In this document: in pieces, positions 13,145 through 52,372 of the stretch
Layout: each line of letters opens with the position of its first letter
Numbering within the stretch: the first letter of the stretch is position 1
Source: Eledone cirrhosa
Taxonomy: Eukaryota
Direction: 5' to 3'
Assembly: GCA_964016885.1 (NCBI GenBank)
Contig: OZ024752.1
Location: 48,360,001 to 48,424,000, forward strand
Length of the DNA: 64,000 nucleotides
Translations under genes and position numbers: made by a program
The notes under the pieces: generated by a model
Databases searched by the model: none
Told to the model about the DNA's origin: nothing
Seen by the model: the letters and a program-made list of their open reading frames with translations, nothing else

Positions 13145-13358
13145 ATAGGAATGAGTAGGACCCCGACGGCTGAGCTCAAGCCTTTTCGACGGCTAATTCT
13201 GGACTAAAAAAATTTTTTAGTCCAGAATTAGCCGTCGAAACGGCTTGAGCTCAGCCGTCGGGGTCCTACTCGTTCCTATTACCCACTCTACTACCCTAAG
13301 TATTGAGTACTTTGGTGCGTTATGGTCCACCTGGTTCCTTACCACATTTCCTTCGTTA
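13145..13358 (+). mobile_element. Family E palindromic cassette carrying the 3' half of a hammerhead
   Basis: Palindrome 13145-13279 centred on aaaaaaatttttt; tagccgtc GAAA cggct tgagctc agccg TC ggggtc; in (TA)n. Confidence 0.8.
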
Positions 13359-16300
13359 TATATATATATATATATATATATGTATATATATATGTATATA
13401 TGTATATATATATATATGTATATATGTATATATGTATATATATATGTATATATGTATATATGTATATATATATATATGTATATATGTATATATGTATATA
13501 CATATATACATATATATATACATATATACATATATATATACATATATACGTTATATATATATATATATATATATATATATATATATATATATATATATAA
13601 GATCAGGATTATACAAGTTTTAAGACTGGTAGATAATATTAGCAATTGGATAGACCAATGGAAACATTGTTTCCTCGGTCCGATTTGATGAGCTCCACCC
13701 TGCTTGTTAAGTGAATGAGGCCTGAGATCTTGTCAATCGACTGTATATATATATATATATATATATATATATATATATATATATATATATATATATATAT
13801 ATATATATATTATTCAAAATGTTTTTAATAATATTAAAAACTCCAGGAAAACCCCACTGTTGAGTGCTTCTAATCTATTGTAAAATTGTATTTGTTGAGT
13901 AATCAACGAACCATACTAATCTTTGGTTATATATATATATATATATATATATATATGTGTGTGTGTGTGCGTATATGTGAGTGTGTGTGCATCATGAGGT
14001 GTATAAGAATGTATTCATAAACATAAACAGAATAGCAACAAATACTGATACATATACACACACATACACGCACACATGAATATATACATGTACACAAACA
14101 CACATGCGCATATATATGCATACATACACACACACACGCATTTATACATACACACATACACACACACGTATATATGCACACACACACACACACACACACA
14201 CACCCACATACATATATATATTCATGTACACACATACTGACACACTCATACTCCAAGATGTTCACCAAAAGAACAGAAAAAACCCAAAGAGAGAGAGTAT
14301 GAGCAATAAAGAAAATGATAGAGAGAGAGAGAGAGAGAGAGAGAGAGAGAGAGAGAGAGAGAGAGAGAGAGAGAGAGAGAGAGAGTATGAGCAATAAAGA
14401 AAATGATAGAGAGAAAGAGAGATAGATACTTAGATAGAGAGAGGGTATGGGCAATAAAAATAAATGATAGAGAGGAAGAAATAGGTAAAGAGAGAGAGAG
14501 AGAGAAAGAAACAAGGGAGAGAGAGAGAAACAAGGGAGGGAGAAAGAGAAAGATACAGAAACAAGGGAGAAAGGGAAAGAGAGAGAGAGAAAGGGAGAGA
14601 GAGAGAGGGGGGGGGGAAAGAAACAAGGGAGGGGAGGAGGAAAGAAAGGGAGAGGGTTATGATGAGAGCAGACCACCCCCTGAGGGTGGTTTGAAATATC
14701 AAACAACCATAACAGTGTTTGCAAACGGTTGTAGAGATATGGATAGTTATGATTTCTATCGGTCTACGATGTTCAGAAAGTGTGTAAGATGTTTCACAGT
14801 GATAGACACAACAACAACAACAAAAACAACAAACAACAACAAAAATAAAAATAAGAAAATAAACATGCAAAAGACAAAACAACAACAACAACAAAAAAAA
14901 AACAAAACAAGACAAAAACAAAAACAAAAATCAAAAACAAAAGACAACATAAAACAGAAAACAAAAGACAAACACCAAACAAACGAAAAACAAAACAGCT
15001 GCCATGGAATTTGGCAAGTTGAAGTTTGGCCGGCAGCAATTCCAAAGTCTCCAAGGAAAGATCTTTCTTTTTGAGGGGTCAAAACTTAATCTCCATTTGT
15101 TTTGCTGTTTGTGTGTGTGCGTGTGTGTGTGTGTGTGTGTGTGTGTGTGTGTGTGTGTGTGTGTGTGTGTGTGTGTGTGTGTGTGTGTGCATGTGTGTGT
15201 ATGATGATGTGGTGGTGGTATTGGTGATGGTGATGGTGTTGGTGGTTGTTGAGAACCATTTTCTAAAATGTTTGTGTGAATTTTTATATTTGCATATTAT
15301 ATATATGTGTATATATATCCATATATATATATATGTACATACATATACATATACATACATAGATAGATATAGACACATATATATATATACATTCATATAT
15401 ATATATATACTTATATATATATATACACATATACATGTATATATGCATATACACATATTTATATACATATATATATACACATATATATACACATATACAT
15501 ACGTACATATACATACATATATATACACATGTACATACATACATATACATATTTATATATATATATATATATACATATATACATAGATACATATATACAT
15601 ATATATGCATACACATACATACAATTGTTTTATTGTTTAAGTTCTTTACAGATGTATTTTATGCACTTGTTTACTTGTGTTTAGATACACGTGTTTATAC
15701 ATTTATCTGTGTGTTTACGCATGTGTGTTGGGAATTTTAAACATACTGGTAAATATGTGTTTCATGCATATATGTGTGTATATATGAACGCATATTATGT
15801 TTTCTGGTCATGTGATCATATGCATGTATATATATATACATTTCAATGTGTCTGAATGTATGAGGATATGTGTGAGTGTTTATATGTGAATATATGTGTG
15901 CTCATGTGTGTGTATATGTGTATGTGTGTATATAGTTTTGCTAGCAGGGAAAATGAATGTTAAATGATAATGATGATCATGATGATATACATACATACAC
16001 ACATATATATATATATATATATATACATATACATATCTATATACATATATATATATATATATATATATGTATATATATATATATATATATATATATATAT
16101 ATATATATATATATATATATATATATATATACACATATATATATATCTATATACACATATATATATATAGCTATATAGATTTACACACGTACACACAAAT
16201 ATGAGTATATATACTCCTGTATATATATATACATATACACTCAAACACACATATATATATATAACTACATAGACTCACACACACACTAATGTGAGTATAT

Positions 16301-16554
16301 ATGTATATATATATATTCATGTAGCTCTCTCTCTCTCTCTATATATATATATATATATAGTCAACAACACACAAACACACACACACACACAACAGAACTA
16401 CACACACAGAGAAACACACACACACACACAACAGAACTACACACACACACACACATATATATGATTATATGATCATTTGTTTGGCTGGGTGGTGGGTGTG
16501 GACATGGAGAAAGATGGATAGTCAAAAGTTGAAATAACATAAACAAAAATATGA

Positions 16555-17032
16555 TAATGATAACAACAACAATGATAACAACAACAACGATAACAACAAC
16601 AACAACAACAACAACAACATCAACAACGATAACAAAAAACAACAATAGCAACAACAACGACAGCAACAACAACAACAACGATAGCAACAACAACGACAGC
16701 AACAACAAGAACAATAGCAACAACAGCAGCAACAACAACAACAGCAGCAACAACCAAACAATAGCAACAACAACTACATCAGCAACAACAACAACAGCAA
16801 CAACAGCAGCAACAACAAAAACAACAGCAACAACAACAACAACAACAACAACAACAACAGCAGCAACAACCAAACAACAACAACAACAACAACAGCAACA
16901 ACAACAGCAACAACAACAATAACAGCAACAACAACAGCAACAGCAGCAGCAGCAACAGCAACAACAACAACAACAACAACAACAACAACAACAGCAACAG
17001 CAACAGCAACAACAACAACAACAACAACAACA
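16555..17032. repeat. (CAA)/(CAG) trinucleotide repeat
   Basis: Directly visible. Confidence 0.95.
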
Positions 17033-17147
17033 GAATATAAAAATTAAAAAAAACATATTTAACTGGATTTAAGAAGAAAAAGAAACCTTTGACAATTTTT
17101 ACAAAGCAACCTGATAGATTGATAATCTATGTTGATTTATTATTATT

Positions 17148-17713
17148 GTATCGGTAGAGGGTCTGACGCCATGTTTTGCAGCATAGAGTTACGGCCCTTT
17201 ATGGTCTGAGTTCAAATCCCGCCGAGGTTGACTTTGCCCTTCATCCTTACGGGGTCGATAAAATAAAGTACCAGTAATGCACTGGGGTAATTGCTGGCCT
17301 TGTGCCTAAAGTAGAAACAATTATTATTAGATATTAGGTGGTGGGTTGGCAGTATCGGTAGAGGGTCGGACACCATGCTTTGATGCACAGAGTTACGGCC
17401 CTTGCCATTCTGAGTTCAAATCCCGCCGAGGTTAACTTTGCCTTTCATCCTTACGGGGTCGATAAAATAAAGTACCAGTCACCCACTGAGGTCGATTTAA
17501 TTGACTTTCCCCTGCCACAAAATTGCTGGCCTTGTGCCTATATAAGAAACCATTATTATTATTAGTATTTTTTTATTATTATTATTAGGTTTTATTAGTC
17601 ACGGTTCAAATCCTTTCGGGGTCGATAAAATAAAGTACCAGTAATGCACTGGGGTAATTGCTGGCCTTGTGCCAAAAGGTAGAAACAATTATTAGTCTTT
17701 TTTCTCCACTAAA
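17148..17713 (+). mobile_element. Tandem trio of Nin/Deu-core tRNA SINEs (17148-17328, 17337-17565, internally deleted 17597-17713)
   Basis: A box tggcagtatcggtaga, B box gagttcaaatcc, core ttcatccttacggggtcgataaaataaagtaccag, (ATT)n tails. Confidence 0.9.
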
Positions 17714-17847
17714 GACATCCATCACCCCTACCGACTCCCCCTACCATTACCCACCCTTGCTTTTCTCCACTAAACCACACACCGACCCACCCACTCACCC
17801 ACCACTCTACTGTCTCCACCAACATTGACCCACCCACCTACCACCAC

Positions 17848-50796: not shown

Positions 50797-51007
50797 TATA
50801 TATATATATATATATATATATATGAGTGTGTGCATATGTAAATATAAAATCTCTCTGTTTCTTTCTCTCTCTTTATATATATATATATATATAAATGAAA
50901 TATATATGAGTGTATGTTAATATAAATATATCTATCTATATTTCTCTCTCTCTCTCTCTCTCTCTCTCTCTCTATATATATATATATATATATATATATA
51001 TATATAT

Positions 51008-51149
51008 TTAGTCCAGAAATAGGCGTCGAAACAGCTTGAGCTCTGCTGTCGGGGTCATACTTTTTCCTATTACCCACTCTACTACCCTAAGTATTGAGTA
51101 CTCTGGTGCGTTATGGTCCATCTGGTTCCTTACCACAATTCCTTCGTTA
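51008..51149 (+). mobile_element. Family E cassette (half hammerhead)
   Basis: tagtccagaaataggcgtc GAAA cagc ttgagctct gctg TC ggggtc; compensatory change in stem III. Confidence 0.82.
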
Positions 51150-51640
51150 TATATATATATATATATATATATATATATATATATATATATAACCCATGCT
51201 AGCATGGAAAATGGACGTTAAATGTTGATGATGATCATAATATATATATATATATATATATATATATATATATATATATAAATAAGTGTTGAAGTTTCCG
51301 TGGAAAAAGTAAAAGGAATGAAGAGTGCTCTATGTAAGTAACAGAGCTATATATAGCCTTATCTGACGAACGAATGCAGACATCTCTTGTGTTCGTCCTG
51401 TTTGGGAAATGTCGGGTAATGCTGTAATTATACTGTGTTGTTTATTATACATTAAATATACATATATAAATATATATATATACATATATAAATATATATA
51501 TATAAATATATATATATGTATATATATATATATATATAGAAAGAAAGAAAGAAAGAAAGAGAGAGAGAGAGAGAGAGAGAGATACAGACATGACATGTAT
51601 GTGTATATATATATATATATATATATATATATATATATAT

Positions 51641-51738
51641 AGGGTGTCCCTTAAAATCTATACACACTTTGATTACCCATACAAGCAATATTTATTGGAA
51701 TGGTGTTGAACTATGTATACATTTTTTGGGGACACCCT
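51641..51738. mobile_element. 98-bp Tc1/mariner-type mini-MITE in (TA)n
   Basis: TIRs agggtgtccc / gggacaccct, extending imperfectly to ~25 bp; TA flanks. Confidence 0.75.
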
Positions 51739-51836
51739 ATATATATATATATATATATATATATATATATACATATTTATATATATATATATATATATAT
51801 ATATATATATATATATATATATATATATATATATAT

Positions 51837-52372
51837 ATAAAATATTAAAAAAATAATGAATAAAACAATGAAACAGTTCCTTATATTAAACAAAAAAAGT
51901 TCATTATTTAACAATCGTTTCTGGGATATATATGTGTTAGAATTGGCATGTATATTTAACAGATCTATGTACAAAATTATACAAAATTATACAAACTATC
52001 AAAATTAAATATACATACCAACTCATATATATGCCGTCTTCAGAAATAATAGTTGGTATGTATATTTAATTTTGATAGTTTGTATAATTTTGTATAATTT
52101 TGTACATAGATCTGTTAAATATACATGCCAATTCTAACACATATATATCCTAGAAACGATCGTTAAATAATGAACTTTTTTTGTTTAATATAAGGAACTG
52201 TTTCATTGTTTTATTCATTATTTTTTTAATATTTTATCTTGACTCTGTATTCCGTTTATCTTTCACCGAAAGTGATTTTTGAATGCATCTCTTCTTTCCA
52301 TGATATCCGGATTACATTGAGTTCTTCATACGGATTGGACACTACCGTAAACTCTTGGTAGATTTATCTACA
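51837..52372. mobile_element. Fold-back cassette with 187-bp inverted arms (51837-52023 / 52051-52237)
   Basis: Near-perfect reverse complements, flanked by (TA)n. Confidence 0.88.
51903..52050 (-). ncRNA. Hammerhead ribozyme with a 115-nt stem II
   Basis: attattt CTGAAGA [115-nt hairpin] GAAA cgattg TT aaataat; perfect 7-bp stem I. Confidence 0.75.

Follow-up and report, generated by a model that had tools for sequence, protein, structure and literature searches.

Twin bulged hairpins beside the insertion ends of Hydra-clade Penelope-like elements in the genome of Eledone cirrhosa

Features of the window

The window analysed here is a 64,000-nt stretch of a 3.0-Gb animal genome, that of Eledone cirrhosa (contig OZ024752.1, positions 48,360,001 to 48,424,000 of the forward strand); it is rich in simple repeats, with 35,920 of its 64,000 bases masked, and short fragments bearing hammerhead ribozymes, often inverted, sit between its (TA)n arrays. 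The question addressed is how Penelope-like elements (PLEs), the closest retroelement relatives of telomerase, pick a copying start and gain a one-sided tail, on which prior knowledge amounts to one in vitro study that found two internal starts in another PLE clade. The original prediction had picked out nine 8-mers said to fit TTGAG(T/G)NC, downstream of the hammerhead cleavage site in families it called unrelated, and had taken them for a single shared signal. Seven of the nine turn out to be the 3′ strand of a bulged hairpin, and the two others (22847 and 47365) are other things. The hairpin occurs twice per element, and the reading that we favor, at a probability of about 70%, is that each copy binds the reverse transcriptase (RT)-endonuclease and so sets a copying start a few bases to its 5′ side.

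The hairpin runs RCUC, stem, loop of 3 to 67 nt, stem, a 2-nt bulge (UN) and GAGY; the sequence of the stem differs between families and its pairing is retained. All nine words are present where they had been placed, in hammerhead-sense orientation and, by distances from the hammerhead anchor, roughly 15 to 155 nt 3′ of the cleavage triplet, much as had been claimed; the window copies of families E, H and V retain only the 3′ half of the ribozyme. The pattern itself fits six of the nine words and misses three (TTGAGTAT, TCGAGTGC and CTGAGAGC). In the list that follows, minus-strand words are named by their lowest base, and short and long ends are those that stop before hairpin 1 and before hairpin 2, respectively.

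5659 to 5708, plus strand: hairpin 1 of family H, with the 5703 word and a UC bulge
13148 to 13356: inverted insertion of family E in (TA)n, the left arm a short end and the right arm a long end, with the 3′ half of a hammerhead
13285 to 13308, plus strand: hairpin 1 of family E, holding the 13303 word
13840 to 13865, plus strand: hairpin 1 of family S, in the tail-only fragment 13811-13927
22847 to 22854, minus strand: family D word, within an unbulged hairpin of a different PLE and not the same element
23512 to 23775: inverted insertion of family A, short and long end, with a hammerhead on the minus strand from 23610
23695 to 23714, plus strand: hairpin 1 of family A, with the 23709 word
32373 to 32396, minus strand: hairpin 1 of a further family E copy whose tail is internally deleted
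42378 to 42756: inverted insertion of family A, with hammerheads at 42570 (plus) and 42474 (minus)
42674 to 42693, plus strand: hairpin 1 of family A, with the 42688 word
46562 to 46595, plus strand: deviant hairpin of family X, with the 46590 word, a CU bulge and a UCUC/GAGA foot; three copies seen
46704 to 46727, plus strand: hairpin 1 of a further family E copy
47310 to 47331, minus strand: true hairpin 1 of family C, missed at first reading
47365 to 47372, minus strand: family C word, not the hairpin; its partner is the 5′ strand of an extended hammerhead stem I
50582 to 50792: inverted insertion of family B, long and short end
50625 to 50643, minus strand: hairpin 1 of family B, with the 50623 word
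51076 to 51099, plus strand: hairpin 1 of a further family E copy
51327 to 51347, minus strand: hairpin 1 of family J, with a UA bulge
51840 to 52371: inverted insertion of family V, short and long end
52242 to 52322, plus strand: hairpin 1 of family V, with the 52317 word and a 65-nt loop
52477 to 52601: second inverted insertion of family B, its left arm ending inside the hairpin

The word as a strand of a bulged hairpin

As a linear word the pattern is only modestly enriched, with 17 matches in the window against 4 to 10 in five shuffles, and 172 against 126 to 139 in shuffles over 954 kb comprising the window and 89 loci (L numbers below denote loci) chosen by position and thus unselected. 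By eye, nine of the 17 window matches stand in hairpin register; the other eight are two damaged B and E copies, two in family D, one in a family E hammerhead stem and three that are unrelated. Genome-wide, a hammerhead core followed by TTGAGT has 1811 matches and the reversed pattern 788, a difference inflated by copy number. The pattern is also matched by the B-box-like word GAGTTCAAA of an abundant repeat resembling a short interspersed nuclear element (window 36716, 11590-12000 and 17148-17713).

The structured descriptor behaves differently from the linear word. Over the same 954 kb it finds 87 matches against 11 to 27 in five block shuffles, and a TA array follows 30 to 100 nt downstream in 65 of the 87 against 0 or 1 in the shuffles. 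Decoys are followed by a TA array less often (antisense, 10/82; no bulge, 27/117; other 2-nt bulges, 18/58), and six other stem words or word orders score 1 to 13. Starting instead from the word, we collected non-redundant clusters with T[TCA]GAG[CT] 35 to 100 nt before a TA array: at a bulge size of 2 a paired upstream partner is found in 13 of 106 clusters (9 of the 20 multi-copy ones), at bulge sizes of 0, 1, 3 and 4 in 0 to 3 of the 106, and among clusters without a TA array in 8 of 812. A search anchored on insertion ends, with the stem sequence left unset, recovered the same hairpin in many multi-end families among those listed. One test that took the longest copy of each family and was anchored on the hammerhead (hairpin 4/16, linear word 2/16, antisense 0/16) was noisy because deleted or short-ended copies got picked, and it is not used as support.

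Across all loci, single copies included, clustering gives, by an estimate made by eye, some 35 to 40 separate hairpin families. A tally of 19 multi-copy families shows T-A as the first upper pair in 12, C-G in six and A-T in one, and A-T as the foot pair in 12 and G-C in seven; these counts are descriptive, as the scan required pairing and the families are related. With the bulge left free, 19 of 21 multi-copy clusters have T as its first base; its second base varies. A GUUC/GAAC stem in family I and in L212 shows that the third pair, too, changes on both sides, and the corresponding GUUC/UUGAAC variant occurs in L297, L309, L328 and L212. What stays constant is the bulged U, a G-C pair and an A-U pair.

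Twin hairpins and the insertion ends

With patterns reaching past the long end, tandem copies of E, N, K, A and C, among other families, prove to carry a second hairpin, spaced 78 to 131 nt from the first and, where an open reading frame (ORF) was found, lying 33 to 90 nt before its ATG. Each hairpin marks an insertion end. Over 17 references with twin hairpins, 315 of 352 TA-joined ends fall 4 to 12 nt 5′ of a hairpin foot, split almost evenly between hairpin 1 (153) and hairpin 2 (162), and at the unselected loci 113 of 125 ends do so; by comparison, the two end windows hold 65 of the 454 TA dinucleotides (14%). To be counted, an end had to be followed by a TA array; those within the final 3 bases of a reference were excluded, as were references Y, Q and B2 because of their microsatellite content. 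The original prediction had tied the word to the cleavage site, to which its distance runs from about 15 to 155 nt; the constant distance is to the insertion ends.

Inverted units join one short to one long end. This holds for 93 of 100 uninterrupted units, for 42 of 47 unselected ones and for all six in the window. In contigs of run X1, possibly the source sample, AT-array loose ends lie at both predicted places.

The elements and the spread of the hairpin

The ORFs upstream of hairpin-bearing ends carry CxCX5C, DKT and RWR without CCHH, which are signatures of the Hydra clade as defined in the text of Craig et al. 2021 (PMC8557442), and 14 of 18 twin-hairpin references run into a Hydra-type ORF start; such starts are 20 to 80% identical over at most their first 110 residues. 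RWR, DKT and CxCX5C, but not DKG, are present in L205 (family E) and L139 (family N), and the CxCX5C linker, a C-terminal GIY-YIG domain without CCHH, and CxxC plus CxH near the end are found in L011, L015, L026, L205 and L139. In families A, E, K and N an ORF follows in tandem copies; the Hydra ORF of family E is seen in L186, L205 and L225 and that of family A in L232 and L241. Family C yielded no direct ORF and resembles C2 to C4, which have Hydra ORFs. A Pfam search of two Hydra ORFs found no family; a stretch of L153 included in it proved to be an integrase with no relation to them. By predicted motifs, hammerheads lie in the pseudo-long terminal repeat (pLTR) and insertions in (TA)n, the core of family N being degenerate. 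Judging by these motifs, the ORF-linked families are Hydra-clade PLEs inserted in (TA)n; far from unrelated, they are paralogs, and the hairpin is shared by descent within the clade. We also considered a non-LTR retrozyme and rejected it: what the window contains is truncated ends, single or inverted, and not tandem non-coding units with complete hammerheads.

The hairpin is conserved in this genome, in a coral, in a sea cucumber and in metagenome loci. Of four metagenome Hydra loci, three have it: L132 carries both hairpins, with a 3′ end 7 nt before hairpin 1, and L133 and L134 carry hairpin 1. Among six new Hydra consensi in File S7 of PMC8557442, inspected by eye, it is clear in Hydra-2_Amil and Hydra-2_Ajap, partial in Crog and weak in Hydra-1_Amil, and the remaining two stop before it would begin. 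The available text of PMC8557442 does not describe the hairpin, and “hairpin” and “stem-loop” have 0 matches in its supplement; nor is it described in the accessible parts of bioRxiv 10.64898/2026.07.22.740005, PMC4209133, PMC11167929, PMC6189040 and PMC1636434, a search that covered few subscription papers and not Repbase. In other respects our elements resemble the Hydra clade of C-terminal endonuclease-positive PLEs as set out in PMC8557442, sharing the RWK-like, DKT and CxCX5C motifs, the absence of CCHH, the hammerhead in the pLTR, the (TA)n target, the inverted 5′-truncated copy and the one-sided tail, although the tails here are 78 to 131 nt long and not 30 to 40. Annotation of the numerous short Hydra remnants in genomes of this kind could also use the hairpin as a marker of the clade.

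Family D is a different case. Its ORF (L024) has a CxxxxCxxC linker and a CCHH-type endonuclease, in place of the CxCX5C linker and the endonuclease without CCHH that characterize the Hydra clade. Copies (window 22719-23200; L024, L153 and L177) show alternative 3′ ends and inverted arms with no bulged hairpin beside them, and a stable unbulged hairpin (z -3.9) lies upstream. In 30 loci with a CCHH-type GIY-YIG endonuclease no hairpin was found before the first TA array, a weak negative, as the true ends may lie further on; with the stem relaxed to TTC/GAA, L077 and L084 are borderline matches. A D-like copy (L305) that runs into a hairpin was set aside, since L267 shows that the hairpin belongs to another element.

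How copying starts might be chosen

The nearest precedent is the Poseidon PLE PAc, which in the account of Frangieh et al. 2024 (PMC11167929) cuts an AT-rich target on both strands and extends both, starts internally at two RNA sites that delimit the tail, and is predicted to be a dimer. For the Hydra elements we envisage that the protein would cut both strands of a (TA)n target, that each target 3′ end would anneal to a TA that precedes hairpin 1 or hairpin 2 by a few bases, and that both would be extended, each hairpin anchoring one RT so that one start serves each target strand. The short arm would then lack hairpin 1 and the long arm would include hairpin 1 and lack hairpin 2, the difference between them being the PLE tail. 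In the available text on PAc (PMC11167929), the two starts bounding the tail, the extension of both target strands and the AT-rich targets are the same, whereas in PAc initiation takes place in an AC-rich stem-loop within the ORF. The Hydra elements have their own conserved bulged hairpin 3′ of each start, upstream of the ATG. Stringent long interspersed nuclear elements (LINEs) have a single hairpin, 5′ of a terminal start, in contrast to the two hairpins here, each 3′ of an internal start. As in the stringent LINE UnaL2 of eel, in the account given in PMC1636434, a conserved RNA hairpin lies near the start of copying, there one needed for mobilisation.

We regard the hairpin as a genuine structured cis element that belongs to a known clade, and the positional evidence for a role at two copying starts is strong. 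A number of points count against this reading. The case for the Hydra elements is made here from genomic sequence; the families are related and hence not independent trials; and the PAc template printed in PMC11167929 has, by eye, no such motif in the part available, so that the precedent comes from another clade. Thermodynamic support is modest, with the minimum-energy fold containing the hairpin in only five of nine hairpin-bearing window segments and most fold z-scores of window segments not significant. The strict register excludes six of 54 curated hairpins, and hairpin 2 often has just one or two upper pairs. Elsewhere than beside a hairpin fall 37 of the 352 ends. Family B yielded neither an ORF nor a second hairpin, a Hydra-2-type pattern giving seven matches there, none a real hairpin 2; families H, J, V and X likewise lack a linked ORF.

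The main rival, an improbable one in our estimate, is that the hairpins direct RNA cutting or 3′-end formation a few bases upstream and that the enzyme starts at the resulting RNA ends. This predicts identical genomic ends, and RNA-seq read ends do fall at the PAc start sites (PMC11167929, as far as its available text goes). However, with both ends used in 93 of 100 inverted units, two differently cut RNAs would be needed for each insertion, and the same source reports that PAc initiated internally on a longer RNA in vitro. Still less probable is recognition of the motif at the DNA level, either by the endonuclease or as a promoter element in the pLTR. For its endonuclease to recognize plasmid DNA, the D. 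virilis element required the tail (a finding cited in the available text of PMC11167929), and the ATG follows hairpin 2 by 33 to 90 nt. A double-stranded DNA site or promoter does not account for half-sites 3 to 67 nt apart, stems that vary and stay paired, and a bulge fixed at 2 nt; moreover, the short-arm cDNA never includes the hairpin that marks its end, and in upper pairs two and three of hairpin 1 G-U exceeds A-C by 9 to 3, small numbers though these are.

It is quite unlikely that TA microhomology alone sets the ends in AT-rich sequence, with the hairpin serving something unrelated such as packaging or translation control. Junctions were scored only before TA arrays, and TA or ATA stands at the modal ends in the reference; yet two windows with 14% of the TA dinucleotides hold 89% of the ends over 17 references that differ in spacing. 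A reading of the word at the codon level was dropped, as both hairpins precede the ATG. Least likely of all is a tertiary contact of the word with the hammerhead: the word always lies downstream in the same sense, and the 47365 word does pair with an extended stem I (by eye, in full-length family C copies L027, L040 and L281), but this is the only site that fits, the distance to the cleavage site varies about tenfold, and the word has its own local partner, exists in a second copy and tracks the insertion ends.

The observation in the original prediction was thus confirmed in part, and its interpretation is partly supported. The conserved cis signal exists as a structure and not as a linear word, and a recognition site for the RT was the best of its three guesses. 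A motif of some 20 nt that occurs twice per element, 4 to 12 nt from both ends, makes the choice of copying starts accessible to a point-mutation experiment.

A possible arginine sandwich

The fixed bases of the hairpin match the arginine-sandwich layout of TAR and 7SK, and the Hydra proteins have a near-invariant N-terminal RxRW; both observations are new here. They raise the tentative possibility that twin, circularly permuted sandwiches of the TAR/7SK type, read by the RxRW helix, position a dimeric telomerase-like RT at two internal starts. Above the fixed G-C and A-U pairs, the bulged U would take part in a U.A-U triple and be read by an arginine, possibly that of the RxRW helix. In an arginine sandwich, as described in the available text of Pham et al. 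2018 (PMC6189040), a bulge pyrimidine forms a triple with a stem pair and a Watson-Crick pair stands before it; the residues given there are A22, U23 and A27-U38 in TAR, with the arginine contacting G26, and A39, U40U41, G42 and A43-U66 in 7SK ASM3. The Hydra hairpin has, like these, a Watson-Crick pair, a bulge starting with U, then G and an A-U pair, so that in secondary structure alone its bulge pyrimidine is preceded by a Watson-Crick pair. Among 34 hairpin-1 rows, A precedes the bulge in 22, and most rows show a UU bulge. Unlike in TAR, whose layout for this comparison is in part general background, the apical loop is on the opposite side of the bulge (hence circularly permuted), and the host function differs.

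On the protein side, 118 aligned Hydra proteins have R39 in 114, R41 in 118 and W42 in 115, other arginines being equally conserved. In a structure model these residues lie in a helix (22-48; predicted local distance difference test score, pLDDT, 93.7). The top fold matches of the model are telomerases, whose chains align from model residue 1 to 8, whereas other RTs align from residue 56 or later (ranges only); on this model, the RxRW helix may fall within the part that matches the telomerase RNA-binding domain. If true, the idea would explain the PLE tail, provide a case of an RT choosing its start through an arginine sandwich, and tie a retroelement RT to the TAR/7SK motif.

Minor observations

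Two tail-only fragments in the window (13811-13927 and 51285-51355) have hairpin 1 and little else upstream, the former between TA arrays. Full-length family E hammerheads are a U3-A8 core variant with a long stem II (L186, L192, L204; window 13231-13263), and in the window and at most loci the family E copies that were seen end within stem II; the hairpin-1 region of family E makes up a satellite whose unit is about 58 bp long (L227-L230). Among Rfam matches in the window, the 150 of 409 listed include no hammerhead, and all are microsatellite-driven and below the gathering score. Family N, a Hydra family, has a GT..AG intron in its 3′ untranslated region, with the precisely spliced form in two of 30 copies (L102 and L127 among L101-L130); its best 150 endonuclease matches are 97 to 100% identical, and its hammerhead core is CAGAAGA and not CTGANGA. 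A 96-bp element with inverted ends GGGTGTCCC lies in a TA array at window 51642-51737 and is unrelated to the hammerhead families. Hammerhead families with a palindromic-CTAG stem III (L002:3547, L007, L015:4487-6069), one of them arranged in 467-bp tandem units, have the octamer-like word ATTTGCAT upstream and no bulged hairpin, and the same word occurs near window positions 2700 and 3200.

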